A stretch of 21,267 bases of DNA from a candidate division WOR-3 bacterium (GTDB lineage Bacteria; Hydrothermota; UBA3072; B12-G15). Numbering within the stretch: position 1 is the first letter of the stretch; each line of letters starts with the position of its first letter. Both the position numbers and the translations under genes were made by a program. This document shows, in pieces, positions 1,100-17,733 of this stretch. The notes beneath the pieces were generated by a model. The model was not told where the DNA came from and did not search any database. It saw only the letters and a list, made by a program, of their open reading frames with translations. The stretch is taken from contig CBFGJG010000037.1 in NCBI GenBank assembly GCA_965649055.1, forward strand, positions 1 to 21,267, given 5' to 3'.

Positions 1100-2359
1100 T
1101 TAAAATCTAATGCCGAAAAATATTTGTGGATTTGCAATCATTCTGTTATTTACCTTCTCCGGTTTTAAATTAAAACCAAAATTTAGGTTATTTAATTCAT
1201 TACTTGTTTCAGTTCCTAAGTCTTTAAAAGTTTTATAGACAATATATGTTAGACCAGCATCAGTAATCATAAATATTGTAGGATATGCTTTTAAAAAATT
1301 GTCAGAATTGCTTAATGCGAGAACACCTGCTGTAAAAAGATGTGCAAGGGAAGGAATTAAGTATGTTAGTATAGCGGTTGTTAAAGATATTTCATTTTCC
1401 TTTGTAAGTTTATCACCGAGCCAGTATCCTGCAAAATGTCCCAGTAAAGAAGCAGCAGCATAGGTTCTTGGTTTGACATCTGAATTATTGAAATTATCAT
1501 AAGTCCAGAGAAGTGCTGGAATTATCTCAGAACCAACAGCAGTTGTTCTTATCTCAAACAATGCATCACCATAACTTATATTTTTTTTACTCTTTGACAT
1601 AAACACCGAGCTATAACCTTCAATAAGTGAAATAATGGAAGAAATTGTGTTATCAACATCTCTAATTTCGAAATCATTTGTAAAAAGTGTTTTGGATATG
1701 TAATAATGATAATATCCATATATATTATGATTTAATTTCCTTTGATATATACCCGGTGTTAAATTAAAAGACCAGCAGAGATAATTATCAAGAAAGTTTT
1801 CAGCTATACTTACAGGGAATACCCATTTTACATCATTGAAAAGGAATAAACCATGGAATAAACCAGCAACACCACCACCAAAAGAACCATAGGCTTGTGA
1901 TGAAGAAATATTCTTTCCATTTGTTAGAAAAAAGTTAGCACCAAAATAGAAGAAAGGAAAGATAAAGCCTGTTCCTGTCCTTATCCTTTCGGTATTATCA
2001 TCAGTAGCTTCACTTCTAAATATAAAAATTGGAAGGCTCCAGGAATAAACGCCAACCCCAAGTAATGTCTGTCCTATAAGATATTCGACCCTTCTGTTTT
2101 CATAAACTCTGTGATATAATATGGGTAATGTGAGTCTTCTCTGGAATTCATCATAATCAATTGTCTTAATATTAACATGGTTTTTGTAATAAGAAATTAT
2201 AAGTATTTTTTTTGAAACCGAATCCGAAAATTCATAGAAACTAATCTTTGCTGGTTTTTCAGGAAAAAGGTCTAAAAAATTAGTTTTTATGTTATCTTGA
2301 ACCTTTACTTCTTTTAGAATCAAATCAGATTCTAAAAATGCAAGTAAAAAAATAAACAC
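1100..2359 (-). CDS. hypothetical membrane/envelope protein
   Basis: 419 aa, GTG start with GGAGG SD; several hydrophobic Gly/Ala-rich helices; ends in aromatic alternating ...QIFFGIRF. Confidence 0.75.
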   Translation of the reverse strand: MFIFLLAFLESDLILKEVKVQDNIKTNFLDLFPEKPAKISFYEFSDSVSKKILIISYYKNHVNIKTIDYDEFQRRLTLPILYHRVYENRRVEYLIGQTLLGVGVYSWSLPIFIFRSEATDDNTERIRTGTGFIFPFFYFGANFFLTNGKNISSSQAYGSFGGGVAGLFHGLFLFNDVKWVFPVSIAENFLDNYLCWSFNLTPGIYQRKLNHNIYGYYHYYISKTLFTNDFEIRDVDNTISSIISLIEGYSSVFMSKSKKNISYGDALFEIRTTAVGSEIIPALLWTYDNFNNSDVKPRTYAAASLLGHFAGYWLGDKLTKENEISLTTAILTYLIPSLAHLFTAGVLALSNSDNFLKAYPTIFMITDAGLTYIVYKTFKDLGTETSNELNNLNFGFNLKPEKVNNRMIANPQIFFGIRF

Positions 2360-2367
2360 TTTTCCTC

Positions 2368-3852
2368 CTATTTTAAAACAATGAGTTTTATTCCACTTCT
2401 TCTTTCACCGTATAAGAAGTAGATTCCGCTCTTTTCAATATTCAATGTTCCGTTATCAACAAGATGTATTGACTGTATATACCTTCCCAGTTCATCATAA
2501 ACATATATATCAATAGGGAAAATATATCCTTCTTTTAATCTGAGGTTAATAACCCCTCTTGTTATTATTATACTATTACCTTCTATAATATTATTATCAA
2601 CCTCAATTATATCAGTTAGTTTATCATACTTTCCTTTCATAAATGCCTCTTTAACGCATTTTTCAAAATCAGGGATTCCATAGCCTGTATATTTATCCCA
2701 TCCAGCAGAGCCAATATCAGTACAGTTTTTTGTTATTATATCCATAACTTCGTAATTCTTCAAATCCGGATTCATAGAAAGCATTAATGCACACAGGGCG
2801 GAGATATGCGGTGTTGCCATTGATGTTCCAACAAAACCAAAGTAATTATAAATGTCCAATTTTGCAAGAGTATCGTAATTTATAAATGGCATAAATACTT
2901 CCTGATATATGTAATCAAACTCATTCGTAGCACCACCACCAGGTCCTACAATATCAAGTTCATATCCGTAGTTTGAATAAGTTGCCCTCTCACCATTTAT
3001 ATTGTACGCACCAACTGAAAGGACCTCATTATATCGTGCAGGAAAGTATACACCTTCAGTGCCATCATTCCCTGATGCACCTACAAGAATAACATTCTTC
3101 TTATATGCATGATATATTGCTTCATAAAGATAACTATTAGAACCTGTTGCACCAAGACTTATGTTTATAATATTTACATTTGCACTATCTGTTGCCCAAA
3201 TAATACCATCTGCAATCTTTGATAATTCTCCCATACCATCATAATCAAGGACTTTTACGGGAACTATCTTTACATTGAATGCAATACCTGAAAGACCTCT
3301 CAAATTATCAGTAGCCTCTGCAATGGTGCCGGATATGTGTGTTCCATGGCCATTATCATCGTTAGGATGAAAATCATTGTTTACAAAATCCCTTCCGGGT
3401 AAAAATGTTTCAGGATTGTAATCAGGGTAAATCCGATAAGTTGAGCCAACCACCTTGCTCTTTTCATAACTGGGGACAGGAAAGAATTCAAAAGAACAAC
3501 CTGTGTCAAGTATACCCAATATAACATCTGCACTTCCGCCACCTATTAAATCCCAAGCCTTTTCAAGATTTATGAATTTCCTTAGATTCCATTGATACTG
3601 GTAAAGTGAATCGTTCGGGACCCATAAGGCTTTAAAAATATAATCAGGTGCTGCTTCTATAACACCTTTCATTTTCTTTATTTCTTCAATAAATGTTAAA
3701 ACATCCTTCCCTTTTGGGACTTCAACACTGAACCAGTTAAAATAATGTTCCTTTGTGATTGATAAACCATATGATTTTATAATTTCTTTTGAATCTGCCT
3801 TTATTAATATATGATCATCTGCGAAAATAACAGAAAAAATAAAAAAAATCAT
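2368..3852 (-). CDS. S8 subtilisin-like serine peptidase with C-terminal T9SS type A-like sorting domain
   Basis: Catalytic motifs ILDTG, DDNGHGTHISG, ASGN, GTSMATPH; C-terminus IYVYDELGRYI...SGIYFL...KLIVLK; SD GAGG. Confidence 0.92.
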   Translation of the reverse strand: MIFFIFSVIFADDHILIKADSKEIIKSYGLSITKEHYFNWFSVEVPKGKDVLTFIEEIKKMKGVIEAAPDYIFKALWVPNDSLYQYQWNLRKFINLEKAWDLIGGGSADVILGILDTGCSFEFFPVPSYEKSKVVGSTYRIYPDYNPETFLPGRDFVNNDFHPNDDNGHGTHISGTIAEATDNLRGLSGIAFNVKIVPVKVLDYDGMGELSKIADGIIWATDSANVNIINISLGATGSNSYLYEAIYHAYKKNVILVGASGNDGTEGVYFPARYNEVLSVGAYNINGERATYSNYGYELDIVGPGGGATNEFDYIYQEVFMPFINYDTLAKLDIYNYFGFVGTSMATPHISALCALMLSMNPDLKNYEVMDIITKNCTDIGSAGWDKYTGYGIPDFEKCVKEAFMKGKYDKLTDIIEVDNNIIEGNSIIITRGVINLRLKEGYIFPIDIYVYDELGRYIQSIHLVDNGTLNIEKSGIYFLYGERRSGIKLIVLK

Positions 3853-3906
3853 ATATACCTCGCTTTTTGTTATTTATTAAATAATTTTTAAAATTATCAA
3901 AATTCT

Positions 3907-4128
3907 CTATTTTTTATTTTCTTTTATTCTCAGTTCCGCACCTTCTCTATCATATGGAAAAAGATAGGATGGAACCTTTACACCTGCCTTAAAAACTAAA
4001 TACCTTGCACATTTGGTGAAATCACCTTTACAGTAAGTTGCTTTGAGAAGTTCCGATGTTTTTGGCATATTTGCCATTTTTTCTTGAAAGAAGGGACAAG
4101 TCGCAAGCCTTTCACATTCTCCCATCAT
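3907..4128 (-). CDS. small four-cysteine hypothetical protein (possible metal-binding)
   Basis: 73 aa; C-x5-CPFF ... YC-x6-CAR ... VPxxLFP; strong SD AAGGAG at 4132-4137. Confidence 0.8.
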   Translation of the reverse strand: MMGECERLATCPFFQEKMANMPKTSELLKATYCKGDFTKCARYLVFKAGVKVPSYLFPYDREGAELRIKENKK

Positions 4129-4144
4129 TCACTCCTTAAAAAAA

Positions 4145-4219
4145 CGGGGCCGACGAGACTCGAACTCGCGACCTCCGACTTGACAGACCGGCGTTCTAAC
4201 CAAGCTGAACTACGACCCC
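4145..4219 (-). tRNA. tRNA-Asp (GUC), CCA not encoded
   Basis: Reverse complement GGGGTCGTAGTTCAGCTTGGTTAGAACGCCGGTCTGTCAAGTCGGAGGTCGCGAGTTCGAGTCTCGTCGGCCCCG folds as a cloverleaf; anticodon loop CT-GTC-AA, T loop GTTCGAG, discriminator G. Confidence 0.97.
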
Positions 4220-4229
4220 GTTTAGATAT

Positions 4230-4257
4230 ATATTATAAAAAGTATGCAAATTGTCAA
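4230..4257 (-). promoter_or_regulatory. sigma70-type promoter of tRNA-Asp
   Basis: Minus strand TTGACA (4257-4252), 16 bp, TAATAT (4235-4230), 10 nt before the tRNA 5' end. Confidence 0.65.
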
Positions 4258-4385
4258 GATAATTTATATATAAAATTGATATTCCATATTAAAAAATTTC
4301 CGGAAAAAATAAAATATTGGTTTTTATCAGTCTTTATTCATTATTATATTCTAACTAATTCCCAAATATATAATTGTAAAATTTC

Positions 4386-4413
4386 TTGACAAAATATTTA
4401 AAAAAAATATTAT
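4386..4413 (+). promoter_or_regulatory. sigma70-type promoter of arcE-arcC operon
   Basis: TTGACA (4386-4391), 16 bp, TATTAT (4408-4413); SD AGGAGG at 4433-4438 before ATG 4443. Confidence 0.7.
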
Positions 4414-4442
4414 ATTCTTTTAAAATTTAAACAGGAGGTTTT

Positions 4443-5753
4443 ATGAGAAAAAAGGTTATTATAATGGGAGCAGCTGGAAGGGACTTCCATAATTTTAATG
4501 TTTTTTTTAAAGATAAAGAAGAATATGAAGTTATTTGTTTTACAGCAACACAGATACCAAACATAGAAAATAGAAAATATCCCAAAGAACTATCAGGAAA
4601 ACTGTATCCTGAAGGTATCCCAATATTACCTGAATCAGAGCTTCAGGAGCTTATAAGAAAAAACGATGTAAAATATGTAGTTTTCTCATACAGTGATGTA
4701 TCTCATAATTATGTTATGGAAAGGGCATCATTAGCACTTGCAAATGGTGCTAATTTTATGCTCCTCTCTCCAACAGAAACAATGATTAAATCAAAAAAGC
4801 CTGTTATTTCTGTATGTGCAGTAAGAACAGGTTGTGGAAAGAGCCAGACGACAAGGTATGTTGGAAATGTTTTAAAAAATATGGGTAAGAAGGTCGCAGT
4901 AATAAGGCATCCAATGCCATATGGAGACCTTGTAAAACAAAAGGTCCAGAAATTTGTAAATTTTGAAGACCTTGACAAACATCAGTGCACTATTGAAGAA
5001 AGAGAAGAATATGAACCACATATCAGGATGGGTTTTACAGTTTTTGCAGGTGTTGACTACGGGGATATATTGAAAGAAGCTGAAAAAGACGCAGATATAA
5101 TATTATGGGATGGTGGTAATAATGATACACCTTTCTATAAACCCGATATACATATAGTTGTTACTGACCCGCACAGGCCCTGTCATGAAATTCTGTATCA
5201 TCCCGGACATACAAATTTAAAGATGGCAGACATTGTTGTGATAAACAAAATAGACACCTCACCGGTTGAAAATATTGAGACCGTAAGAAAAAATATAATG
5301 AACAATAATCCAAATGCATTAATAATCGATGCTGCTTCTCCAATCTTTGTAGAAGACCATACAAAAATAAAAGGTAAAAGGGTTCTTGTCGTTGAAGATG
5401 GTCCAACACTCACACATGGAGAGATGTCATACGGTGCAGGATATGTTGCTGCAAAGAGATTTGGTGCAAAAGAGATTATAGACCCAAGAAAATTTGCAGT
5501 TGGTTCAATTGTTGAAACATATCATAAATATCCGAATACCGGAAATGTTCTTCCAGCAATGGGTTATGGAGAAAAACAGATACAGGAACTTGAAAAAACG
5601 ATAAACAATTCAGATGCTGATATCGTTATAATTGCGACACCGATCGACCTTGGGAGGCTCATTAAGATAAATAAACCTTATGTAAGAACGACTTATGAAT
5701 TACAGGTAATCGGAAAACCAACACTTGAAGATGTTATAAGAGAAAGATTATGA
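4443..5753 (+). CDS. arcE: arginine synthetase ArcE-like P-loop NTPase (COG2403 'predicted GTPase' / cDPG synthetase-like family)
   Basis: GAAGRDFHNFN, FTATQIP, Walker A AVRTGCGKS, RHPMPYG, TIEEREEYE, WDGGNND, EDGPTLTHG, LPAMGY motifs; overlaps a carbamate kinase gene. Confidence 0.8.
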   Translation: MRKKVIIMGAAGRDFHNFNVFFKDKEEYEVICFTATQIPNIENRKYPKELSGKLYPEGIPILPESELQELIRKNDVKYVVFSYSDVSHNYVMERASLALANGANFMLLSPTETMIKSKKPVISVCAVRTGCGKSQTTRYVGNVLKNMGKKVAVIRHPMPYGDLVKQKVQKFVNFEDLDKHQCTIEEREEYEPHIRMGFTVFAGVDYGDILKEAEKDADIILWDGGNNDTPFYKPDIHIVVTDPHRPCHEILYHPGHTNLKMADIVVINKIDTSPVENIETVRKNIMNNNPNALIIDAASPIFVEDHTKIKGKRVLVVEDGPTLTHGEMSYGAGYVAAKRFGAKEIIDPRKFAVGSIVETYHKYPNTGNVLPAMGYGEKQIQELEKTINNSDADIVIIATPIDLGRLIKINKPYVRTTYELQVIGKPTLEDVIRERL

Positions 5754-6694
5754 AAAAGACAGCCGTTGTTGCACTTGGCGGTAATGCCATACTTCCACCA
5801 GATTCGAAGGGTGATATACATGCACAATTTGCAAATACAAGAAAGAGCCTTGTAAGTGTTCTTCATTTTATTAAGAAAGAATACAACATTGTTATAACAC
5901 ATGGTAACGGTCCGCAGGCTGGCGACGAAATATTAAGGAATGAACTTGCAAGACATATTATTCCGGAACTCCCCCTCGGTGTTATTGATGCTGCTACCGG
6001 CGGCTGGATGGGTTATATGATACAGCAATCCCTTCATAATATACTTATTAAGAATAATATAAAAAAAGATGTTGTTACAATACCAACGCAGGTAATAGTG
6101 GATGAAGATGACCCTATGTGGAATAAGCCTACAAAACCTATCGGTAGGTGCCTTAATGAAGAAGAAGCAAAAGATTTAATGAATGATAATATACCTGTAA
6201 TTGAATATTCTAAGGGATGCTTTAGAAGGGTAGTCCCGTCTCCTTTCCCTAAGGGGATTGTGGAAAAGGAAATAATAAAGACACTCGTTGAAAAAGGTAT
6301 TATTGTAATTGCCGTTGGCGGAGGTGGTATACCTGTTTATATCACAGAAGAGAATACACTTGAAGGGCTTGACGCAGTTATTGATAAGGACCTTTCATCC
6401 AGTGTTCTTGCAAGGGAAATAGGTGCTGATATTCTGGTAATTTTGACAGGGGTTCCGTGTGTTTATATTAATTTTAATAAACCTGGTATGAGAAAGATAG
6501 AGAGAATGAGTGCAAAGGAAGCAAGGAAATATTTAAATGAAGGTCAGTTCCCGCAGGGAAGTATGGGACCTAAAATACTTGCTGCCTGTGAATTTGTAGA
6601 AAAAGGCGGTAAAGAAGTCCTTATTACATCCCTTGATACAATAGAATTGGCTCTTGATTATAAAGAAGGGACAAGAATATACCCTGATGTATAA
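5750..6694 (+). CDS. arcC: carbamate kinase
   Basis: VVALGGNA, THGNGPQ, PTKPIG, RRVVPSP, GGGGIPV, AVIDKD, GSMGPK; ATGA overlap with upstream gene. Confidence 0.96.
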   Translation: MKKTAVVALGGNAILPPDSKGDIHAQFANTRKSLVSVLHFIKKEYNIVITHGNGPQAGDEILRNELARHIIPELPLGVIDAATGGWMGYMIQQSLHNILIKNNIKKDVVTIPTQVIVDEDDPMWNKPTKPIGRCLNEEEAKDLMNDNIPVIEYSKGCFRRVVPSPFPKGIVEKEIIKTLVEKGIIVIAVGGGGIPVYITEENTLEGLDAVIDKDLSSSVLAREIGADILVILTGVPCVYINFNKPGMRKIERMSAKEARKYLNEGQFPQGSMGPKILAACEFVEKGGKEVLITSLDTIELALDYKEGTRIYPDV

Positions 6695-7562
6695 GGTAAA
6701 TCCTATAATAATTGTTCATGGTGGGACAACAAATAATCCGCATAATCTTGAAGAAAAGAAAAGTGGAATCACAAGGGCATTAAATTCAGGATATCAGATA
6801 TTAAGACAGGCCGGAAGCGCAATCGATGCGGTTGTTAAAGCTGTTATGGTCCTTGAAGATGACAGTAATTTTAATGCGGGATACGGTTCTGTTCCTAATA
6901 TACTTGGAGAAGTTGAAATGGATGCCGCAATAATGTCCAATAAATTATTTGGTGCTGTTGCTGCAATAAAGGATGTGAAGAATCCGATACTTGTTGCGAA
7001 GAAAGTAATAGAAGAGACAGAACATATTCTTATTGTCGGTGAAAATGCAACAAAATTTGCAAGGTTGATGGGTTTTGGATATTTTAACCCGCTTACTGAA
7101 GAAATGAAGGAAAGGTATGAAAATTCAAAAACCTCTCCACACTATAAAAAAGTTGAGTATTTCAGAAACCTCTATGGATGTGGAACAGTTGGAGCAGTCG
7201 CAATGGATATAGATGGAAATATAGCAGCAGGTGTATCAACTGGCGGATTATTCTTACATCTTCCCGGTAGGGTTGGAGATTCACCTTTGATAGGTGCGGG
7301 TATATATGTGAATGAAAATGGCGGAGCAGTTTTCACGGGATTTGGAGAAAAAATTGCAATAAATATGCTTGCAAAGGAATCAGTAGATTATTTAAAACAT
7401 AACAAACCATTTGAAGTAGTGAATAAACTATTTGAAATATACGATTTTCCATTTGGTCTGATTATTCTTAATAAGTATGGAGAATATGCATCAGGTCATA
7501 ATATGAAATATCTTTTTTGGGGTTATAAAAATGAACATGAAGAATTTGCAAGTATAGAATGA
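6687..7562 (+). CDS. iaaA: isoaspartyl peptidase / L-asparaginase (Ntn hydrolase, T2 family)
   Basis: IIVHGG, LEDDSNFNAGYGS, EMDAAIM, autocleavage site G/TVGAVA, STGG, GRVGDSP; start placed at ATG 6687 overlapping arcC end. Confidence 0.9.
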   Translation: MYKVNPIIIVHGGTTNNPHNLEEKKSGITRALNSGYQILRQAGSAIDAVVKAVMVLEDDSNFNAGYGSVPNILGEVEMDAAIMSNKLFGAVAAIKDVKNPILVAKKVIEETEHILIVGENATKFARLMGFGYFNPLTEEMKERYENSKTSPHYKKVEYFRNLYGCGTVGAVAMDIDGNIAAGVSTGGLFLHLPGRVGDSPLIGAGIYVNENGGAVFTGFGEKIAINMLAKESVDYLKHNKPFEVVNKLFEIYDFPFGLIILNKYGEYASGHNMKYLFWGYKNEHEEFASIE

Positions 7563-8659
7563 TATTTTACATTATTGTTTTTTTTGATATTAATCTTAAC
7601 TATTTTAAGTTTTCCGAATACAAAGGTTTTTATCTGAATAACACAATCTTTTATGATAGAAGTATAATAAATATAAAAGACAGAATTTCAGGAGGATTAA
7701 ACTTTAATGAAAAATATATTCTTTCATTAGATAATAAATTCTATTTAGGGTTTAATTTATTTAACCTTACAATATCACCACTTTTAGGATACAGTAAGAA
7801 TGAAGAAAAAAATGAAATTTATTATGGAACGAATCTTGATTACAAGAAAAATTTCGGGAATATCATTTTTAAATTGGGATACCAGTTTAATTCGCTTAAA
7901 GATTTATACGAAAACCTAATAAATATGAATCTTGAAATCATTGATACATTTTTTTTGAATTTTTCTTTAAATTCTTTTTTATTTTCTCAAAAAGATGAAA
8001 ATTCATACCTTGCAGCATTATCAGCATCATTTATGCTACCATATAAATGGATTTATTATGGTGGTGGACTTACATTCAAATTTTATTCAAAAGGTAATCC
8101 TGTTTTTGAAACAAATTATTTTAATTATTATTCTCCAATAAATATTTTTTTTAAAATCTGTTATAACAATAACAGGAATAATGGAAATATAAAATTAAAA
8201 GTTTCCGTTAAAGATAATGAAGATAAGCATGTTGAATGCAATATGAAGATAAACGAAAGAATATTTAAAATTAAAGATGAAAGGGTTATCTCATTATTAC
8301 CTGGAAGATACAGGATAAAGTTCTATAGTGATGAATACGAAGACCTTGATACAACAGTTGTCCTTGTAGGTAATTCTACTATTGAAGTAATTTTGAAGAA
8401 AAAACTAAATTTATCATCCTTAAAACTTAAGGTTATAGATAAACACGATTTTTCCGGTATTGATGCCTATGTTGAGATAATATCTGATAATACGATGAAA
8501 GTTAAATGTGACAAGGATGGAAATATCAATATTAAAATTTTACCCGGTTCATATGTTATAAGAATTTTAAAAGAAGGATACCTTACAAAAGGATTGTATC
8601 TTGATATTGAGCCTTCCCAAGAGATTGAAAAAACCGTTACACTTCAGAGAATAAAATGA
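7559..8659 (+). CDS. hypothetical envelope protein: N-terminal beta-rich (barrel-like) region plus C-terminal PEGA/carboxypeptidase-regulatory-like repeats
   Basis: Alternating aromatic beta-strand pattern, then LLPGRYRIKF..EYED and CDKDG..ILPGSYVIRILKEGY motifs; ATGA overlap with iaaA. Confidence 0.65.
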   Translation: MIFYIIVFFDINLNYFKFSEYKGFYLNNTIFYDRSIINIKDRISGGLNFNEKYILSLDNKFYLGFNLFNLTISPLLGYSKNEEKNEIYYGTNLDYKKNFGNIIFKLGYQFNSLKDLYENLINMNLEIIDTFFLNFSLNSFLFSQKDENSYLAALSASFMLPYKWIYYGGGLTFKFYSKGNPVFETNYFNYYSPINIFFKICYNNNRNNGNIKLKVSVKDNEDKHVECNMKINERIFKIKDERVISLLPGRYRIKFYSDEYEDLDTTVVLVGNSTIEVILKKKLNLSSLKLKVIDKHDFSGIDAYVEIISDNTMKVKCDKDGNINIKILPGSYVIRILKEGYLTKGLYLDIEPSQEIEKTVTLQRIK

Positions 8660-9582
8660 GAATACTCAAAGAGATAATTAAATTTTTATTTACTATTTTA
8701 TTATTTTATTTGATTTTTAGAAAGATTCCTTTTTCGAATGTGAGGATGAAATTATTATCACTTGATAGAACCTATTTGGTTCTGTCTTTTATTTCTTTCT
8801 TTATTTACTACCTGTTTTTTTCTTTAAGATGGTCTTATTTACTTGATAAAACAGGAATAAAGATAAGTAGGATAAAATCTTATACCTATATTTTAATAAG
8901 TTTTTTCTTCAACAATTTTCTTCCAAGTGCGGTTGGCCAGGATTTTATAAGGTCTGCTTATGCCTCAAAAAACGAATTTTCAAAGGCTTTAGGTGTATCA
9001 CTTATGGATAGATTTCTCGGTTTTATAGGGATGTTAATATTGGGAATCCTGGCTGTGTTAAGCAAGATACATAAGATTAAGGTTCTTTCGGTTCTTTATT
9101 TTCTTTTAATATTATTACTTTTTTTATTATTTTACATCTTTACAGCAGGAAATTTTGGGAAAGGGATAAAAGAAAAAATCTTAAGAATAAAATTTTTGAA
9201 TTTTGGTGACGAACTCAGAAAATTCTATAATGTCTTGAAAGATTTTAAGGGAAGAAGGATTGTTTTAATTAATGGAATAATTCTTTCGATAGTTATTCAG
9301 GGAATGATTACTATTATCAATTTTTTTATATTTAAAAGCACAGGGATTAATATATCATTTTTTAATCTTGTTGTATTGTTACCTGCTATAACAATCCTGA
9401 GCCTTGTCCCTTTAACATTAAATGGTCTTGGTTTAAGAGAATTTGCTTATATATATTTTTTTGGATTGGTAAATATAAAAGGTGAAGAAGCCCTGACTAT
9501 TTCATTATTATTCTTTTTTATTTCTGTTATAGCAAGTCTTTCCGGTGGTATTTTATTTCTTTTTATCAAAAGAGAAAAGTAA
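8656..9582 (+). CDS. lysylphosphatidylglycerol synthase TM-domain / UPF0104 flippase-like membrane protein
   Basis: SLRW, FFNNFLPSAVGQD, MDRFLG, VPLTLNGLGLRE motifs; about 8 TM helices. Confidence 0.88.
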   Translation: MRILKEIIKFLFTILLFYLIFRKIPFSNVRMKLLSLDRTYLVLSFISFFIYYLFFSLRWSYLLDKTGIKISRIKSYTYILISFFFNNFLPSAVGQDFIRSAYASKNEFSKALGVSLMDRFLGFIGMLILGILAVLSKIHKIKVLSVLYFLLILLLFLLFYIFTAGNFGKGIKEKILRIKFLNFGDELRKFYNVLKDFKGRRIVLINGIILSIVIQGMITIINFFIFKSTGINISFFNLVVLLPAITILSLVPLTLNGLGLREFAYIYFFGLVNIKGEEALTISLLFFFISVIASLSGGILFLFIKREK

Positions 9583-10482
9583 TTATTTTACCATCTCTTT
9601 TATCATCTTCACTATTTCTCCGCCAACCTTATCCTGAGCTTCTTTTGTCATTGCAGCAATATGTGGTGTGCAGATAAAGTTTTCAAGTTCAAGCAATTTT
9701 AAATTCTCAGGTGGTTCTTTTTCAAAAACATCGAATCCAGCACCTTTCACTTTCCCATTCTTCATATATTCATACAGGGCATTTTCATCAACAACACCAC
9801 CCCTTGCGCAGTTTATTATATAAACCCCTTTTTTCATCTTTTCAAATGCATCTTTATTTATCAGGTATTTTGTTTCATTTGTTAATGGAATATGTAGGCT
9901 TATAAAATCTGAATTTTTTAGCAGTTCATCGAGTGAAACCATCTTTACCCCTTCTATATCTATTTCTTTAACATAAGGGTCGTATGCTATAACATTCATC
10001 ATAAGACCAATAGCCCTTTTAGCAAGTTCCTTACCAATCCTTCCAATACCTATTATTCCCAGAGTTTTCCCAGTTAATTCAACCCCCTTTATCTCTTTCT
10101 TTAACCATTTTCCTTCCCTCATAGATACAGTCCCTTTAACTATTTCTCTTGTCAGAGCAAACATAAATGCAATAGCAAGTTCAGCAACTGAAACAGAGCT
10201 TGCAAGTGGAGTATTCAGAACTTTTATCCCTTTTTCTTCTGCGTATTTCACATCGATGTTATCAACTCCTACGCCACCTCTTATGATGATTTTAAGATTC
10301 TTACCCCTTTCAATTACATCCTTGGTAATCTTTGTTCTTGAACGAACCACGACACAATCATAAGCTTCTATCTCTTTCAACAATTCTTCAGGTGTTATCT
10401 CCGGTTTATTCGTTACTTCTATCATATTCTTTAATTCTTCAACTGCCTTATCACTTATAGGGTCACATATTAACATTTTCAT
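9583..10482 (-). CDS. serA: D-3-phosphoglycerate dehydrogenase-like D-2-hydroxyacid dehydrogenase (short form, no ACT domain)
   Basis: VRSRTK, RGGVGVDNID, SVAE, GIIGIGRIG, INCARGGVVDE, DVFEKEP, TPHIAA; SD AGGAGG. Confidence 0.8.
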   Translation of the reverse strand: MKMLICDPISDKAVEELKNMIEVTNKPEITPEELLKEIEAYDCVVVRSRTKITKDVIERGKNLKIIIRGGVGVDNIDVKYAEEKGIKVLNTPLASSVSVAELAIAFMFALTREIVKGTVSMREGKWLKKEIKGVELTGKTLGIIGIGRIGKELAKRAIGLMMNVIAYDPYVKEIDIEGVKMVSLDELLKNSDFISLHIPLTNETKYLINKDAFEKMKKGVYIINCARGGVVDENALYEYMKNGKVKGAGFDVFEKEPPENLKLLELENFICTPHIAAMTKEAQDKVGGEIVKMIKEMVK

Positions 10483-10502
10483 AAAATCCTCCTTTTTTTA
10501 AT

Positions 10503-10530
10503 ATTATAAATGGAAAAAATAATCTGTCAA
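10503..10530 (-). promoter_or_regulatory. consensus sigma70 promoter of serA-like gene
   Basis: Minus strand TTGACA (10530-10525, overlapping the GGDEF gene stop), 16 bp, TATAAT (10508-10503). Confidence 0.8.
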
Positions 10531-12032
10531 AAAATTTTAGATATTTTAAATCTGTCTCCACCTTCTCTTTTTGCATCATAACATGCTGAATCGGCAAGGT
10601 GAATTAATCTTAACTTTGACAATCCATTAACGGGATAAACACTTATACCAATACTCAAAGTTAATTTTTGATTTTTCATCTCTTCACGAACTTTTTCAAT
10701 AAGCCTTTTTGATATCATTTCAGCCTTATCATATCCTGCCTCAACAAGAAGAACAATAAATTCGTCCCCTCCATATCTTCCAATAACATCAATATTCCTT
10801 ATATTCTCCTTCATTATATCTGTAATTCTCTTTAGCATATCATCCCCCATAAGATGTCCATATTTGTCGTTGTAATTTTTAAAATTATCAATATCTATGA
10901 ATAATATACTGAACATCTTGGAATATCTCTTACTTCTTTCAATCTCTTTTTCTATCTCTTCTTCTATCTTCCTCCTGTTTGCAATATTTGTAAGTGGGTC
11001 TGTTATTGAATAGGTTTCAACTTCCTTAAAGGAGAAATAATTATGAACTGTGATAGCAAGATTATTTGATATCGCTGTCAATGTGTCTATTTCTTCTTCA
11101 AGGAAACCATCTACAATATCTTTTGAATATGTAACCGCTCCAATGACATCTTCTCCTATTATCAGTGGGAACGAAATCTCGGATTTTATTTTATCAATCA
11201 CTTTTACATAATATTTATCCTCTGATACATCCGGTGCGTAATAATATTTTTTAGTATTTATTGCATTCAAGGTGATTGAATTTCCTTTAAGCTTGTCACT
11301 GAAACTTTTTACACTTTTATAACCTTTCCAGGCAATAGGAACCAAAAGTTCATTTTTTTTATCATACCAGAAAACAGCAGTATATTTAATACAAAGGCTT
11401 TCCTTTAATTCCTTCATCAGATTATTAAGAACCTTCTTAATATCAAGGGATGATATAAGGCATTCACTTGTTCTGTATAATAGATTTATCTTTTCCTGTT
11501 TCTTTTTTATATCTTCAAATGTCTTCGCATTGATAAGTGCGGTCCCTGCATTCAAGGCGAATAGCTCAACCTTTTTTAAATCATCGTAACTAAAAAAATT
11601 AGGTTTATCCGAATCCGCATAGAATATTCCAATTATCTTTTCTTTATATGTTAATGGATATGCAAGGACGCTTCTTCTTCCTTTTTTCAAGGCAACTGGA
11701 TTTGCATCTTTATAATTCTTAAGGTCGTTTATTATAACTGGTTTTTTTGTCTTAAGGATTGTTCCTGATATTCCCTTCTTCAGTCTTGCAGTGCTTTTGT
11801 ATGTGATTAATTTTTTTGAACCCTGATACATCTCAAAAGCAAGTGGAAAAAGTCTGCTATCCTCAAGTATGAGTAAACTCATATGATTAACCTTTAAAAC
11901 ATCTATCCCTCTTCTGAGTATTTCTTTTATTACTTCTTTTAAATTGAGTTTCGAGATTACATACTGGGAAAGTCTTAATATCTTTAAGAAATATTCATAA
12001 TCTTTTTCCCTTAACTCATCACATTTTCTCAT
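10527..12032 (-). CDS. GAF-GAF-GGDEF diguanylate cyclase
   Basis: Two GAF-like repeats (SVLAYPL..IIGIF; SEISFPL..VIGAV), TDPLT, DIDNFKNYNDKYGH, intact RYGGDEF with RxxD I-site (RNID). Confidence 0.93.
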   Translation of the reverse strand: MRKCDELREKDYEYFLKILRLSQYVISKLNLKEVIKEILRRGIDVLKVNHMSLLILEDSRLFPLAFEMYQGSKKLITYKSTARLKKGISGTILKTKKPVIINDLKNYKDANPVALKKGRRSVLAYPLTYKEKIIGIFYADSDKPNFFSYDDLKKVELFALNAGTALINAKTFEDIKKKQEKINLLYRTSECLISSLDIKKVLNNLMKELKESLCIKYTAVFWYDKKNELLVPIAWKGYKSVKSFSDKLKGNSITLNAINTKKYYYAPDVSEDKYYVKVIDKIKSEISFPLIIGEDVIGAVTYSKDIVDGFLEEEIDTLTAISNNLAITVHNYFSFKEVETYSITDPLTNIANRRKIEEEIEKEIERSKRYSKMFSILFIDIDNFKNYNDKYGHLMGDDMLKRITDIMKENIRNIDVIGRYGGDEFIVLLVEAGYDKAEMISKRLIEKVREEMKNQKLTLSIGISVYPVNGLSKLRLIHLADSACYDAKREGGDRFKISKIF

Positions 12033-13702
12033 CTAACCCTTTTACCTTTATCTATAAAAAGATATCTTTTTATCTTCATTGCAGCGGTCTTCGGGAATTC
12101 TTCATCCCTTATAACAATTCTTCTTATCTTTTTATAATCAGCAAGATGTTCATTCTTTTTTGCTATCTCTTTAGATATTATCTCATAAATCCTATCATTA
12201 TCTATTTCAATATTATGTTCTTTGCAATAATTATCAAGTGCCTCCCAGTTTGGATATATATTTGCTGTAAGTTCTTCTGTCCCCGTCCTGTCATCTATTT
12301 CCATTGTCACAAGCAATTCACTTATAAACTCAATATCCTGTAATTTTTCCTCTATTTCTTCAGGATAAATATTCTTTCCGCCTTTCGTTACAATCACATT
12401 CTTTGCCCTTCCAGTTATAAATATATATCCTCTTTTGTTTATATACCCAAGGTCTCCTGTTCTGAACCATCCATTATAAAAAGCCTTCTCAGTTGCCTGT
12501 GGATTTTTATAATAACCTTTAAATACATTATCCCCTTTTGCAACAATTTCACCAATACCATCGATGGGTTCAATTATATCAATATCAACATCTGGAAGTG
12601 CCCATCCAACAGATGCATTTCTTGGTCTTGATGGTGGGTTCACTGAAAGAACAGGTGAAGTCTCAGTAAGCCCATATCCTTGTAATATTGGAAAACCCCA
12701 TAATTCGAGTTTCTTTGAGACCCATATTGGTAGTGCAGAACCACCGGAAATAAGATATCTTAATTTGTGTAAACCCAAGTTTTTTCTTATTGGTCTAAAA
12801 AGGGTTTTTGAAGCTATCCTTAAGTTTGTCTTCATAAAAGGATATGAGATACCTTCAAATATTTTAAGCATTCCTTTCTTTAGAATCATCTGCTTTCTTA
12901 TTTCTTTCTCAATCCCTTTTACCAGTTTTTCAAGTAATAATGGAACAGTGATGAATATCTGAGGTTTTGTGTATATCATATCTTCCTTGAGTTCATTTGG
13001 TTTTAAAGACCTGCCAATTGAAATAGTCAGGCCAAGTGTTAATGAGAGTATGAAACCAACCGTAAAGGGAAAAACATGATGCAATGGTAATATCAAAAAC
13101 TGGGTGTCACCAGGATTAAAATACAATGCCTGATACATCTGGGAGACATTAGACATAATATTCTTATGTGTCAACATAGCAATCTTTGAATCGCTTGTAG
13201 TTCCTGATGTAGAAAAGAGAACCGCAAGTTCATTCACATCTGTTTTTGTCAGTTCTATTTCACTATCACCGATAAGTTTGCTTATATCTTTAAATAGGAT
13301 ATATTTTATTCCTTCTTCATTTCCTTCTATCTCACCATCATCTGTTATTATGAATTTTGTCTCTGATAGTCTCAAAAAATGAAGGACCTCAGATAAAGTC
13401 AGCCTTGCATCCAGAGGAACAACAATTCCTCCAATCCACAAAACTGAAAGGGCAGATATTAACCATTCAAATGAATTAGAACCTTTTATTGCAATATGGT
13501 CCCCTTTCTTAAGACCTTTCTTTTTCAATGATGCAGCAAATTTTCTAACCCTCCTTAAAAGTTCTTTATAAGTTATCTTTTCCCATTCATCGCCCTTTCT
13601 CATCATAATTGCAATTCTTTCTGAATGTTCTTTTGCAGCATTTTCAAATGCTTCGGGGATTGATAAAATTGGTAATGGTTCTCTAATTCTTTTAAATCCC
13701 AT
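12029..13702 (-). CDS. long-chain fatty acid-CoA ligase (AMP-binding family)
   Basis: TSGTT P-loop, LPLHH, QGYGLTETSP, FRTGDLG, GRAKNVIV, GKNIYPEEIE, PKTAAMKIKR. Confidence 0.9.
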   Translation of the reverse strand: MGFKRIREPLPILSIPEAFENAAKEHSERIAIMMRKGDEWEKITYKELLRRVRKFAASLKKKGLKKGDHIAIKGSNSFEWLISALSVLWIGGIVVPLDARLTLSEVLHFLRLSETKFIITDDGEIEGNEEGIKYILFKDISKLIGDSEIELTKTDVNELAVLFSTSGTTSDSKIAMLTHKNIMSNVSQMYQALYFNPGDTQFLILPLHHVFPFTVGFILSLTLGLTISIGRSLKPNELKEDMIYTKPQIFITVPLLLEKLVKGIEKEIRKQMILKKGMLKIFEGISYPFMKTNLRIASKTLFRPIRKNLGLHKLRYLISGGSALPIWVSKKLELWGFPILQGYGLTETSPVLSVNPPSRPRNASVGWALPDVDIDIIEPIDGIGEIVAKGDNVFKGYYKNPQATEKAFYNGWFRTGDLGYINKRGYIFITGRAKNVIVTKGGKNIYPEEIEEKLQDIEFISELLVTMEIDDRTGTEELTANIYPNWEALDNYCKEHNIEIDNDRIYEIISKEIAKKNEHLADYKKIRRIVIRDEEFPKTAAMKIKRYLFIDKGKRVR

Positions 13703-14966
13703 AAGTTTCCCTCCATTTGTTGATCTTTTTTAATGATTCAATGTAAAAGTTTTTTCTTTGTATCTTTTTATACTCCTTAAGAACCCCGAAATTAGCATTC
13801 AAAGGTTCAAATTTTTCTCTTTTCTCAAATAAATAAGAGATTATACCCTCAAATAAAGTCCCTTTAGGTGGAAATATGGGCGATTTTCCATTAATTGTTC
13901 TATATATATTAATACCTGCATAGAGACCTGTCAAAGAAGCTTCCATATATCCTTCCATACCTATTAAAGTTCCTATCAGATATAAATTATTTTTAAATCT
14001 TAGATATTTGTCAAGTAAAATTGGTGTATTTATATATGTATTTCTATGTATCATTCCATACCTTAAAAAAATAGCATTCTTTAAAGCAGGTATCATTCTG
14101 AAAACCCTTTCCTGTTCTTTTATCTTCAATCTCGTCTGGAAGCCAACCATACTTAGAGCAGAACCTTCTTTATTTTCCATCCTTAACTGAACAACCGCAT
14201 AAACATCTTTAAATTTTTCAGGTATCTTTAAACCTACTGGCTTTAATGCTGAAAATCTAAGGGATTCTCCTCCTCTTCTTGCCATCTCTTCAATGGGGAT
14301 ACAGCCTTTAAAAAATAAATCCTTTTTTATATGTGGTTTGTGTTTTTCAGCATTCTTTAATTCTGTCACAAATTTTTCGTATTCTTCCTTTGTTAAAGGA
14401 CAATTAAGATAATCGTCTCCGTCTTTGTATCTTGAGCCCCAGAAAGCAAGATTAAAATCAATTGATTCTGTAAGGATTATAGGTGAAACAGCATCGTAAA
14501 AAAAAAGATTATCTTCACCCAGTATATTTTTCAATTTTTTTTCAAACCTTTTTGATGTCAAAGGTCCTGTCGCAATCACATTTATAAAATCCTCATCTAT
14601 TTCATATACTTCTTCCCTTATTACCTGACAATTTTTTTCAATATATTCAGTTATATCTCTTGAGAAGTTTTCCCTATCAACAACGAGTGCCTTTCCGCCT
14701 TTAATCCTGTTTTTATATGCAAACTCAATTATTTTTGAACCGAGAGCCTCCATCTCAAGTTTTAATATTCCCTGGGCAGTTTCTTTCTCTATTGATTTAA
14801 GTGAATTGCTACAAACGAGTTCAGCAAGGTATCCTGTCCTGTGTGCTTCTGTCATCTTATTAGGTCTCATCTCAAAGATTTTTACATTTATACCTTTTGA
14901 TATAAGATACATAGCACATTCTGCACCTGCAAGTCCACCACCTATTATTCTAACTTCAGAATGCAT
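13692..14966 (-). CDS. trmFO: folate/FAD-dependent tRNA m5U54 methyltransferase TrmFO
   Basis: IIGGGLAG, AELVCSNS, FFYDAVSP, YLNCPL, GCIPIE, VGFQT, RYGMIHRNTY, EGY; start set at MHSEV (14966). Confidence 0.95.
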   Translation of the reverse strand: MHSEVRIIGGGLAGAECAMYLISKGINVKIFEMRPNKMTEAHRTGYLAELVCSNSLKSIEKETAQGILKLEMEALGSKIIEFAYKNRIKGGKALVVDRENFSRDITEYIEKNCQVIREEVYEIDEDFINVIATGPLTSKRFEKKLKNILGEDNLFFYDAVSPIILTESIDFNLAFWGSRYKDGDDYLNCPLTKEEYEKFVTELKNAEKHKPHIKKDLFFKGCIPIEEMARRGGESLRFSALKPVGLKIPEKFKDVYAVVQLRMENKEGSALSMVGFQTRLKIKEQERVFRMIPALKNAIFLRYGMIHRNTYINTPILLDKYLRFKNNLYLIGTLIGMEGYMEASLTGLYAGINIYRTINGKSPIFPPKGTLFEGIISYLFEKREKFEPLNANFGVLKEYKKIQRKNFYIESLKKINKWRETYGI

Positions 14967-17733
14967 AACCAAGATAAATACTGAAATACACATTCGGTAA
15001 ATGATATTTTATTTTTGTCCTCTTTGCTATATAAAAATTTAAATCTGTAATACCAAGGTTTATCTTCGCCTCGAGTCCATAACTTGCTAAGAGATTATCA
15101 AGAACAGGAAATCCATTCTCAATATGTAAGAATTTGTAATTTGACAGATCCGATGTTGCTCCTCCCATATCAAAAAATAAAGCGCCTTTTATACCTGAAA
15201 TTGTTATTGGTGGGAAACCAATTGACAGGACTTTAATCAAAGGAAATCTAAATTCCATATTTAAGACTCCTGCATATGTTCCTTCCTGTTCAGTATAATC
15301 ATAACCTCTCACACCACCAATTTCTCCTATATAAACAGTTCCAAGGAAACTTGCTTCCCTTCCCCATGAATGAAACAGATATAATCTTTTTGCAATATTG
15401 AAATCACTTGTTATATAAAAATAATTCCTAAGGTCTGTTTCAAACAACTGAAGGTCCCAGAATTTTTCATAATCAAAAGGTGTTCCCATAAATCTTAAGT
15501 ATCCTCTGAAACCTTTGATTGGAGCGTAACCGGACCATAATGTGAAATCCATAACATATCTCAGATTCAGGAACAAACTCAGGAAATAATCCGACGAAAC
15601 ATAGACACCTGATTGATATTCGTATATATCATAAGGTAAATAATAACCATCAGCCTGGAATTCGAGCCTTGTAAAAGTATCAAACGGATACATTATCAAA
15701 CCACCAATTCCATAGAGATTGCCGATATTTATGTATTCGTTAACCATATCATATGAATAAAAACCTACTGCACTTTTCTGTGCGACAATTCCATAATCAA
15801 ATCTGTGTTTAAGGTAAAGGTATTGCAGATACATATTACTTTCAAGAAGATTCGAATTGTCAAAGTAAAAATAAAGCCAGTTATTCCCGAGGACATCGCT
15901 CATAATCAAAACAAATTGTGCCGTAAGTCCATAATATGAATCATAGTATAGATAAGGATTTAGGTAATCAATACCAAAATTCAGACTTGCATCTTTCACA
16001 GCATACTCTTCATTTATTTCAATTTTTATCTTGAATTCCTGATATTCTTTCTTTTCTGGTATTTCTTTTATTCCAAGATTATTTATATCTTCAACTAAAA
16101 ATAAATCATAGCCGCTTTTTGTAAGAACAGAGAAAACAGTCTTTTTTCCGTCATCCGCTATTGAGAATGAATGTATGGGTTCAATAAAATCAGTTATTTT
16201 AAATATTTCATTACTCTTCAAATCATATTTATAAAGTTCCCTATTCCCGGACCTTTCAGAAAGAAAGTAAATTATAGAATCCTTCAATACAGGAGATATT
16301 ATTGAACCTGAAAAATTAAGTATCCTCTCTATTTTACCGTTCATATCCACAGAATAAAGATTGAATTCATCGTAATCCCACTCTCCATTTGATTTCCTGT
16401 TAGAAGTAAACAATATCTTATCATTAAAAAATACAGGATTCAAATCAGACCAAAAATCATTTGTGAGCCTTGAGATTTTTTTATTTTTTAAATCATATAT
16501 AAATATATCTGAATATCCATCTTTCACACCTGTAAAAACAATCTTACTACCATCATCAGAAAATTCAGGCCATATTATCCTATCAAGATCAAGATTAATC
16601 TTGTTTTCAACTTTACCGTTTTTTAAGTTATAGATATATATATAATCCTTACCGAGTTCTTTCGAAACAAAACATATTCTTTCGCTATCTTTTGTAAAAC
16701 CTATATGTCCCTCAAGGATATGCAGTGATTCAAATTTTCTTCCCCTTCCCTCTCCCACTATTTTCCCAAGGTCTTTTTTATCGATGGTGCTTATAACACC
16801 TATTTCTATTTCTTCCTTTCTATCCCTGTAATAAATAACAAGATTCCCGTCAGGTGAGATAGATGGAGCATAATTCAGATAATTTTTCATTCTCGTATGG
16901 TCGGTCAGTCTTTCTGTTTTTTCATCTATGAAAGTTTTTGTCGAGAATATAAAACTATATCTTTTCTTCAAATCACGCTGCCAGAGCTCATCAAGTTTAT
17001 CGATTGACAAACCAAGAACCTTTACCAGAGATTTATCAAATGATTTTGTTTCCCTAATAGAGTTAAAAAGCTCACCCAATTTTTTTTCACCGTATAGTTC
17101 AGTTATGAACTTCAGGACGCTCTGTCCTTCCTTATAAATCACATATCCAGAGTATTTATCAAGTGCTTTTAAGGATATTATTCTGTTATTTAGTAATGCA
17201 TCAATCATAAATTGTTCACATTCCGGAGTCCATCCAGAAGAAAGGTATTCTGACATTCCTTCAACAAACCATAAAGGGACCTGTATGCTTAATCTTCTGT
17301 TGAATGCATCAAGACCTGTTCCATACCAGACTTTGTTCTGAAAATAATGTGTTAATTCATGTGAAAGTGTATGCCTGAAATCAGAAAGGTCTCCATCGTA
17401 TGGAAGGACAATCCTGTTTTTGAAAGCCTCTGTGAATCCGGATACTGCTTCAGGCAATCTTTCAAAAAGTATATTTGTCTCTTCAAACTCATTACTTGAA
17501 TTATATATAACAACGAGTATTCTTCTTTTATCTTTATCTTCCTTAAAAGACAGAACATTTTTATAATGATAATATGTGCTTTCAAGCACCGCTACAGCAA
17601 AGCTTGCAAGTTTCTCGGAGTTTTCTTGAAAATAAACCTCAAAATTTTCTGACTGAATAATTTTCCAGTCACTAACTTTATACTGAACCTTGTTCTGACC
17701 AAATATATATTGTGATAGGATTAAAAATATCAT
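14956..17733 (-). CDS. peptidase MA-like + PD40/TolB beta-propeller + Omp85/BamA-type C-terminal barrel outer-membrane protein
   Basis: FGQNKVQY N-terminus, HELTH and PLWFVEGMSEY zincin motifs, PSISPDG/PEFSDDG repeats, barrel motifs GGVRGY and GALFFDMG, C-terminal Phe. Confidence 0.85.
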   Translation of the reverse strand: MIFLILSQYIFGQNKVQYKVSDWKIIQSENFEVYFQENSEKLASFAVAVLESTYYHYKNVLSFKEDKDKRRILVVIYNSSNEFEETNILFERLPEAVSGFTEAFKNRIVLPYDGDLSDFRHTLSHELTHYFQNKVWYGTGLDAFNRRLSIQVPLWFVEGMSEYLSSGWTPECEQFMIDALLNNRIISLKALDKYSGYVIYKEGQSVLKFITELYGEKKLGELFNSIRETKSFDKSLVKVLGLSIDKLDELWQRDLKKRYSFIFSTKTFIDEKTERLTDHTRMKNYLNYAPSISPDGNLVIYYRDRKEEIEIGVISTIDKKDLGKIVGEGRGRKFESLHILEGHIGFTKDSERICFVSKELGKDYIYIYNLKNGKVENKINLDLDRIIWPEFSDDGSKIVFTGVKDGYSDIFIYDLKNKKISRLTNDFWSDLNPVFFNDKILFTSNRKSNGEWDYDEFNLYSVDMNGKIERILNFSGSIISPVLKDSIIYFLSERSGNRELYKYDLKSNEIFKITDFIEPIHSFSIADDGKKTVFSVLTKSGYDLFLVEDINNLGIKEIPEKKEYQEFKIKIEINEEYAVKDASLNFGIDYLNPYLYYDSYYGLTAQFVLIMSDVLGNNWLYFYFDNSNLLESNMYLQYLYLKHRFDYGIVAQKSAVGFYSYDMVNEYINIGNLYGIGGLIMYPFDTFTRLEFQADGYYLPYDIYEYQSGVYVSSDYFLSLFLNLRYVMDFTLWSGYAPIKGFRGYLRFMGTPFDYEKFWDLQLFETDLRNYFYITSDFNIAKRLYLFHSWGREASFLGTVYIGEIGGVRGYDYTEQEGTYAGVLNMEFRFPLIKVLSIGFPPITISGIKGALFFDMGGATSDLSNYKFLHIENGFPVLDNLLASYGLEAKINLGITDLNFYIAKRTKIKYHLPNVYFSIYLGYAF

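Follow-up and report, generated by a model that had tools for sequence, protein, structure and literature searches.

A basic n-region and a hydrophobic core of minimum length are held to be near-universal in bacterial signal peptides, and both are built into the programs that predict them; an h-region of sufficient length has about 7-15 residues. Engineered E. coli signals with a neutral n-region, studied in the 1990s, reportedly regained function when the core was lengthened or made more hydrophobic. In the Bacteroidetes, though not in the whole Fibrobacteres-Chlorobi-Bacteroidetes (FCB) group, most substrates of signal peptidase I (SPI) carry a Gln at position +1 that becomes pyroglutamate, a regularity known as the Q-rule (excerpts of PMC5837995 and PMC10653852 that treat it). 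The subject here is a set of very short, uncharged N-termini from a candidate division WOR-3 bacterium of the FCB group. Four of them lie in one stretch of 21,267 nucleotides (the window), which is the whole of contig CBFGJG010000037.1 (C37) of the 85-contig, 2.08-Mb assembly GCA_965649055.1 (G000; 31.6% guanine plus cytosine (GC), completeness 93.8%, contamination 0.04%).

A preliminary description of the window, made from the sequence alone, had proposed that these N-termini are a minimal signal peptide of this lineage. That proposal remains the best-supported reading, although the lineage still uses the classical signal as well. The short N-termini are read here as minimal Sec-type SPI signal peptides, composed of Met and about 6-12 residues rich in Phe, Ile and Leu, with no basic n-region, a vestigial c-region and a putative cleavage site; the probability of this reading is put at roughly two in three. 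It is preferred because the starts are the true N-termini, because the carriers include proteins that must be exported, and because the short runs occupy the place of the canonical signals of orthologues. The features of the window on which the argument rests are as follows, with the basis in brackets.

14956..17733, minus strand: 925-aa outer-membrane protein with Peptidase_MA_2, a TolB-like PD40 propeller and a C-terminal Omp85-type barrel (Pfam, NCBIfam, AlphaFold2, Foldseek)
17710..17733, minus strand: MIFLILSQ codons, the whole presumed signal (7 residues, then Gln; start 11 aa ahead of the FGxNK motif)
17730..17733, minus strand: ATGA start/stop overlap with the upstream gene for a 157-aa membrane protein (sequence)
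2368..3852, minus strand: 494-aa subtilase (Peptidase_S8) with a propeptide-like N-terminal segment (Pfam, E 2.4e-48)
3820..3852, minus strand: MIFFIFSVIFA codons, presumed signal ahead of DDHILIK (orthologue comparison)
3858..3861, minus strand: GAGG Shine-Dalgarno site, 5 nt 5′ of the S8 protease ATG (sequence)
3874..3876, minus strand: in-frame TAA, 7 codons 5′ of the S8 protease ATG, excluding a longer N-terminus (sequence)
1100..2359, minus strand: 419-aa protein with several hydrophobic stretches (no Pfam or NCBIfam family; orthologues in 10 of 20 sister-family genomes)
2333..2359, minus strand: GTG start and MFIFLLAFL codons (orthologue comparison)
2364..2368, minus strand: GGAGG Shine-Dalgarno site, 4 nt 5′ of the GTG of the 419-aa gene (sequence)
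7559..8659, plus strand: 366-aa protein, weakly matched by PEGA and CarboxypepD_reg towards its C-terminus (Pfam)
7559..7585, plus strand: ATG, in an ATGA overlap with the upstream gene, and MIFYIIVFF codons (short in 4 of 4 orthologues)

Short N-termini in the window and across the genome

Direct reading of the starts gives the four N-termini exactly as they had been described, and the support claimed for them is also present, namely GAGG or GGAGG 5′ of two starts and ATGA coupling for the other two. The 925-aa protein begins at an ATG at 17733 on the minus strand (MIFLILSQYIFGQNK), and the 28 open codons upstream, which reach to 17817, include no ATG, GTG or TTG. None of these codons occurs either in the 7 open codons upstream of the S8 protease (ATG at 3852, minus strand; MIFFIFSVIFADDH), in the 15 open codons 5′ of the 419-aa protein, which lie within the end of the S8 gene (GTG at 2359, minus strand; MFIFLLAFLESD), or in the 6 open codons upstream of the 366-aa protein (ATG at 7559, plus strand; MIFYIIVFFDIN). 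No lipobox Cys is present in any of the four window proteins.

Across the genome, open reading frames (ORFs) were called with a simple caller of our own, which accepted ORFs of at least 100 aa, settled overlaps greedily and picked the start by Shine-Dalgarno score and codon; it returned 1743 ORFs covering 92% of the DNA. The short-start pattern was defined as Met with at least four of five residues from F, I, L, V and M, no K, R, D, E, N, Q, H or P in residues 2-6, and the first polar residue at position 7-16. It is found in 143 of the 1743 ORFs (8.2%) but after only 137 of 9378 internal Met residues (1.5%). Among the 143, the first polar residue falls most commonly at position 10, and 42 have Ser at position 7. 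Those with transmembrane stretches further along the chain were set apart (short+TM) from the short class proper. The counts are then 120 short, 23 short+TM, 105 canonical SPI-type proteins led by Lys or Arg (K/R), 47 lipobox proteins that are likewise K/R-led, 2 pilins and 1446 others. The short N-termini are thus real, genome-wide and well above chance, and they are not confined to the window.

The same census shows that short and canonical designs are used side by side, with type IV pilin leaders also present, and that the classical signal has not been replaced, since the K/R-led SPI-type and lipoprotein signals and the pilin leaders all remain. The preliminary description had taken a canonical majority among secreted proteins as a sign against its proposal; such a majority does exist, but it is slight (152 vs 120) and does not refute the short N-termini as signals.

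The evidence on start sites is extensive. The first ATG, GTG or TTG of the open frame is used by 100 of the 120 short ORFs, and 115 have either this property or a good Shine-Dalgarno site. An in-frame stop lies within 8 codons upstream in 81 and within 3 codons in 38. Within 4 codons the figure is 32%, compared with 41% and 19% in the other two frames and 26% for other genes; such stops are as frequent as in other frames and genes, and therefore no coding sequence is hidden upstream. Out-of-frame upstream ORFs that begin with MK or MR and read into the short starts are not enriched (24% vs 21%), which argues that homopolymer frameshifts are not the cause. Short starts with adjacent stops also recur in independent assemblies, four from the window's family (f1) and about 20 from its sister family (f2). 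In the case of BamA, the stop stands 3 codons 5′ of Met in 4 of 4 f1 genomes and 2 codons 5′ at the nine f2 loci with the shortest open frames. Long ORFs in G000 are ended by all three stop codons (TAA 448, TGA 361, TAG 135). True starts further upstream, which the preliminary description had named as an objection to itself, have no room in the four window genes, given their in-frame stops, Shine-Dalgarno sites or ATGA overlaps.

Leaderless transcription was considered as a general feature of the class and set aside: under a strict definition, a suitable promoter precedes only 4 of the 120 short ORFs, and by eye about 15 look promoter-proximal. As a separate observation, a TTGACA-N16-18-TATAAT-like promoter ends 4-11 nt 5′ of the start codon in 59 of the 1718 ORFs of the four classes scanned, which suggests that a good number of mRNAs in this genome are leaderless or nearly so.

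Carriers, orthologues and distribution

Forty stretches of the genome rich in class members supplied 80 of the 120 short proteins, along with 64 canonical ones, for comparison with Pfam. Families were found for 48 of the 80, leaving 32 without a family. The short class includes BamA (Omp85 with four POTRA domains), two TolC-like OEP proteins, two TonB-dependent receptors and one secretin, as well as five gingipain-type Peptidase_C25 proteins and eight proteins with the tail of the type IX secretion system (T9SS; Por_Secre_tail). An M14 carboxypeptidase, two subtilases, two SurA-like rotamases, an AmiC-type amidase (Amidase_3), an M23 peptidase, three TlpA-like redoxins, and M16, FecR, PASTA and PDZ proteins were also identified. 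Three of the 80 are plainly cytoplasmic false positives (PurA, PdxA and a metallophosphoesterase). The 64 canonical proteins carry the same kinds of domains (four T9SS tails, a C25 peptidase, a secretin, OmpA and binding proteins), and further include a LolA-like protein, HlyD, PBP2, M16 and three cytoplasmic false positives.

A hidden Markov model (HMM) of the T9SS tail, trained on the tails of 12 Pfam-verified cargo proteins and searched against the last 110 residues of all ORFs, points the same way. Its 71 matches comprise 24 short, 22 canonical and 25 other proteins, several of the last narrowly missing one or the other class or being truncated at the end of a contig. Enrichment is similar in the short (odds ratio 8.4, p 5e-12) and canonical classes (odds ratio 8.6, p 2e-11). 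Short N-termini mark exported proteins.

Of the window proteins, the 925-aa protein had been labelled an Omp85 fusion. Its Peptidase_MA_2 part has an HExxH motif, and Pfam gives no match to PF01103 or POTRA, even with the C-terminal 380 aa searched up to E 10. An AlphaFold2 model of the last 370 aa is an all-beta barrel (mean confidence, pLDDT, 79.8; pTM 0.75), for which the top 20 Foldseek matches are all BamA chains, the best being the E. coli BamA barrel 7nre_A (E 3.4e-10, TM-score 0.64). Since BamA barrels are its best matches, the label is right by fold, while at the level of sequence it finds no support in Pfam. The barrel thus escapes PF01103, and the role of such a protease-barrel fusion appears to be undescribed. 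The T9SS-like tail ascribed to the S8 protease was detected neither by Pfam (last 110 aa, E up to 10) nor by NCBIfam nor among the 71 matches of the genome-trained tail HMM. The 419-aa protein, previously called an envelope protein, belongs to no Pfam or NCBIfam family, but its sister-family orthologues bear canonical signals. The name PEGA-like for the 366-aa protein rests on a weak match (E 3.9e-5).

Orthologues of the 925-aa protein were found in 39 of 41 relatives searched, with only weak partial matches in G009 and G017. Their mature part begins with an invariant FGxNK(I/V)xY, more narrowly FG[KQ]NK[IV]QY, which allows the distance from the start to be compared directly. In f1 and f2, in the further families f3 and f4 of the window's class, and in f11, the start lies 11-13 aa ahead of FGxNK (11 in the window), whereas in the deeper families f6, f8, f13 and f14 it lies 23-27 aa ahead, with an MKK-type n-region. 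Two loci are ambiguous: L005 and L028 both have a TTG further upstream, and its use at L028 would give MGQEYK. Other FCB phyla were scanned by alignment, with 559 relatives as the yield, of which 80 were kept (L141-L220). The motif stood at the expected place in 51, which were scored (from Ignavibacteria, Marinimicrobia, Zixibacteria, KSB1, Cloacimonadota, Caldithrix and Bacteroidota), and the other 29 were left unscored. At the start chosen by Shine-Dalgarno score, 49 of the 51 have 20-55 aa ahead of the motif, a number that rises to 50 when the first start of L209 is used, while L163 has only 14. These long outgroup signals have K or R in front, as judged by eye, and typically end in ..A/QFG, where the slash precedes the part taken as mature. 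The short form drifts in sequence from orthologue to orthologue and stays hydrophobic throughout (MIFLILSQ, MIYILLLLSQ, MILLLLLTSQ, MLILLLLLSQ).

Three more families follow the same pattern. Orthologues of the S8 protease read MIILLILSFLPKAA/EDHILVKF in the window's family and MILLLFSFAVAQ/HHIIVKW, as opposed to MKDLSILFFYLFCILPLFS/ERIILEFK and MKYGFISLFLILSGYVFGA/DNSIIVKP in deeper families. The 419-aa protein of the window begins MFIFLLAFL/ESDLILKEVK, whereas sister-family orthologues have the classical signal MKKFLLLMIPAVMVFA/QDTFIKVK. BamA starts as MFFIMMALFPY/DEVI, MVFLLMMVFPY/GEVI or MLFLIIAAFPY/NEVI in the window's family and as MLGLILLFAFPY/GEVIV in the sister family. The match in position between short and canonical forms holds for the 925-aa protein, the S8 protease, the 419-aa protein and BamA. 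The orthologues of the 366-aa protein are short in 4 of 4 cases (MILILLSFQS, MILLFISSAG, MIFFLFSLFIYD, MTVILLFSFIEY). Because the canonical signals of orthologues stop at the same mature residue, the short form is a derived truncation, in which the n-region has been lost together with about half of the hydrophobic core, counted from its N-terminal side. It would have arisen, within a single class of an uncultured phylum of the FCB group, from signals of the usual 20-25 residues. Within a family the state of each orthologue is stable, with 12 pairs short in both members, 10 canonical in both and none changing in either direction.

The same pipeline was applied to samples of other genomes, with the following shares of short ORFs among all ORFs.

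G000 (window, whole genome; GC 32%): 120/1743, 6.9%
G001 (same family, GC 36%): 13/176, 7.4%
G002 (same family, GC 41%): 15/162, 9.3%
G007 (sister family): 6/101, 5.9%
G008 (sister family): 6/134, 4.5%
G012 (sister family): 1/96, 1.0%
G030 (deeper family): 9/328, 2.7%
G038 (deeper family): 3/141, 2.1%
G027 (deeper family): 1/61, 1.6%
G040 (deeper family): 1/58, 1.7%
E. coli K-12, 200 kb: 1/171, 0.6%

Since the samples are small and the genomes related, these shares are presented as a gradient and not as a statistical test. Most of the matches in deeper families look cytoplasmic, and the lone E. coli match is a flavodoxin whose start was called wrongly (the strict canonical or lipoprotein filter let through 9 E. 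coli ORFs). GC content does not track the share, as relatives in the window's family at 36-41% GC equal or exceed it while genomes of the same phylum at 37-41% GC stand at about 2%. The short N-termini are commonest in the window's family, in which they stand on about half of the SPI-type exported proteins.

Some neighbouring features of the window were also noted. The 157-aa membrane protein that is ATGA-coupled to the 925-aa gene (17730-18203, minus strand) belongs to no family and has a weak SecDF-like NCBIfam match (E 9e-4). Out-of-frame sequence 5′ of the 925-aa orthologues is conserved, which suggests that the pairing of the two genes is kept across the order. A small Cys-containing ORF (3907-4075, minus strand; MANMPKTSELLKATYCKGDFTKCARYLV...) ends 55 nt 5′ of the S8 gene. 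A tRNA-Asp(GTC) lies at 4144-4220 on the minus strand, and the 101-aa ORF listed at 4084-4389 on the plus strand is therefore spurious.

Proposed function of the short N-termini and competing explanations

For the minimal signal peptide we infer a route, the sufficiency of the peptide and its cleavage. The very hydrophobic N-terminus would be caught on leaving the ribosome, most likely by the signal recognition particle (SRP) with its protein Ffh, and delivered to SecYEG. Its orientation may depend on how few K/R residues come directly after the hydrophobic run, perhaps with the free alpha-amino group, and not on basic residues in front; the preliminary description had suggested that the (formyl)Met amino group may stand in for the n-region. 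The single LepB would then cut after a small residue, often Ser, Ala or Gly followed by Gln.

The residues downstream of the run bear on this last step. Among the 120 short proteins, 25 have Gln as their first polar residue where 6.1 would be expected; the canonical class has 25 among 105, with 5.3 expected, but the lipoproteins have only 3 among 47. Gln often occurs as Ser/Ala-Gln, as at 17710-17712 in the window, and is 4-5 times over-represented in both SPI-type classes, in which K/R are depleted at the same position. This matching context argues that the same peptidase handles both. A Tat (twin-arginine translocation) signal is not apparent, as no Arg precedes the hydrophobic run in the short class. 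Considered by itself, the Gln enrichment after both kinds of SPI-type signal amounts to a partial Q-rule outside the Bacteroidetes; the plant-type glutaminyl cyclase PF05096 was not found in G000, and the M28-type cyclase was not searched for.

Lipoproteins stand apart. The short form occurs in 2 of 49 lipobox proteins but in 118 of 223 SPI-type proteins (53%; p 1.5e-11), an asymmetry that neutral drift of start codons would not yield. This suggests that a signal held in the membrane until lipidation cannot do without the n-region.

Several points weigh against minimal signal peptides. Sec signals are described as having a positively charged n-region, whose neutralisation lowers transport, and as needing a minimal core length and hydrophobic density (excerpt of PMC5875014). 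In G000, the uncharged run after Met has a mean of 8.6 residues (range 5-14) in the short class and 14.4 in the canonical class, and the 925-aa protein has just 5-6 hydrophobic residues (IFLIL(S)) ahead of Ser-Gln. Compensation by greater hydrophobicity was considered and is not seen: hydropathy per residue is equal (2.85 short vs 2.83 canonical), with the same L/I/F-rich composition, and so no hydrophobic gain makes up for the lost charge and length. Ser, Gly or Ala directly precedes the first polar residue in only 40 of 120 short proteins, which leaves many cleavage sites unclear. The two signal types do not differ in the kinds of proteins that bear them, and specialised export machinery was not seen in the genome. 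Finally, the gene caller and classifier are home-made, and the relatives are represented by small samples of their proteomes (18-328 ORFs).

With regard to the machinery, the preliminary description had expected an adapted SecA, SRP and signal peptidase system, for which no evidence was found in gene content, copy number, the LepB catalytic motifs or the overall similarity of SecY. LepB, Ffh, SecA, SecY, YidC, TatC and LspA are each encoded once in G000. LepB keeps the SGSM, K and GDNRDNSxDSR catalytic motifs when aligned to E. coli signal peptidase structures, so that its catalytic Ser and Lys are intact, and SecY is ordinary in overall alignment (434 bits to Aquifex SecY 3dl8). An extra signal peptidase was rejected as the adaptation: f1 and f2 have just one LepB, while two copies occur in G038 and G033, genomes with canonical signals. 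Archaeal-type ether lipids were likewise rejected as the background to n-region loss, since the GGGPS/PcrB gene is also present in families whose orthologues keep canonical signals and so does not track the trait. A gene of this family, for an archaeal-type ether-lipid step, is itself widespread, occurring in 38 of the 41 phylum genomes searched.

A different explanation accepts the short hydrophobic N-termini as real but denies that they are sufficient, cleavable signals; export would instead depend on mature-domain signals, a permissive (prl-like) SecY or another factor, and the N-terminal stub would be kept or cut by another protease. The shorter h-region with no gain in hydropathy, the many members lacking a small residue ahead of the first polar residue, and the avoidance of the short form by lipoproteins, which need a stably held signal, would all fit. 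On the other hand, the stub conserves its hydrophobicity while its sequence drifts, as expected of a working signal, and the Gln enrichment and K/R depletion after it match those of the canonical class. An uncleaved oily stub would also be expected to hinder release of BamA, TolC and TonB receptors from the inner membrane, and SecY is ordinary in overall similarity. This explanation is considered unlikely.

Two further explanations deny the short N-termini a role altogether. If the true starts lay upstream, hidden by non-canonical start codons, read-through, or frameshift and assembly errors in A/T homopolymers, the proteins would have K/R-led signals. The in-frame codons just 5′ of the starts do often read K, R or G (ITKSEVY-M, IGGK-V, ICKYR-M, EGNSK-M), ATA and ATT codons are common there, and the coding starts hold T homopolymers. 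Those K, R and G codons, however, are the Shine-Dalgarno sites themselves (GGAGG, GAGG). Undepleted in-frame stops, within 3 codons in 38 and within 8 in 81 of the 120, the lack of enrichment of out-of-frame ORFs, identical starts in independent assemblies and the use of all three stop codons to end long ORFs make hidden starts highly improbable. Still more remote is the idea that the pattern is a functionless by-product of AT richness around gene starts, with codons such as TTT, ATT and TTA. T-rich DNA does encode F, I and L, and the genome has 31.6% GC, but the pattern is 5.6 times as frequent as after internal Met, is enriched 8-fold among T9SS-tail proteins, and is conserved orthologue by orthologue. 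Moreover, it is as common or commoner in the 36-41% GC relatives, and stands at about 2% in the 37-41% GC genomes of the same phylum.

Minimal signal peptides, if that is what the short N-termini are, would have several consequences. There is an even chance that the class is part-way to replacing the tripartite signal by an uncharged hydrophobic tag of Met plus 6-10 residues, on which BamA, TolC and TonB receptors would depend and from which lipoproteins would be excluded. If the tag alone suffices and is cleaved after 7-12 residues, these would be the shortest natural Sec signals known; to our knowledge no shorter natural export signals have been described. No account of natural bacterial signals of 7-12 residues without an n-region was found in the full-text literature, a scope that largely leaves out subscription journals, so that a prior report is possible. 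Such signals would imply a Sec, SRP and LepB system, or a membrane, with looser recognition rules than those of E. coli, and would make the lineage a direct test system for the real needs of the translocon, SRP and signal peptidase. The contrast with lipoproteins is a hint that the n-region is most important for signals that have to stay in the membrane. The secretomes of such lineages are probably under-predicted, which bears on how the metabolism and ecology of uncultured FCB-group bacteria are read from their genomes, and the short N-termini are candidates for very short secretion tags.

Comparison with described signals

Compared with the classical Sec/SPI signals of E. coli OmpA and BamA, the short N-termini likewise stand at the extreme N-terminus of envelope proteins, with a hydrophobic core and a polar, K/R-poor mature start. 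They occupy the same alignment position as the signals of orthologues, and standard LepB, SecYEG, SecA and Ffh are encoded in the genome. They differ in having no basic n-region, in a total length of about 7-13 aa instead of about 16-25, and in a c-region that is often unrecognisable. The Q-rule of the Bacteroidetes finds a partial parallel, in that Gln is the first polar residue in 21-24% of signals here, against about 5% expected, and the signals of outgroup orthologues of the 925-aa protein end in ..A/QFG, as described above; unlike in the Bacteroidetes, Gln follows only a minority of signals. The engineered E. coli signals with neutral n-regions are similar in that a basic n-region is helpful without being absolutely required. 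They are, however, mutants made in the laboratory, with poorer export unless their core is made longer, whereas the core in this lineage is shorter, natural and conserved, and is carried by essential proteins.

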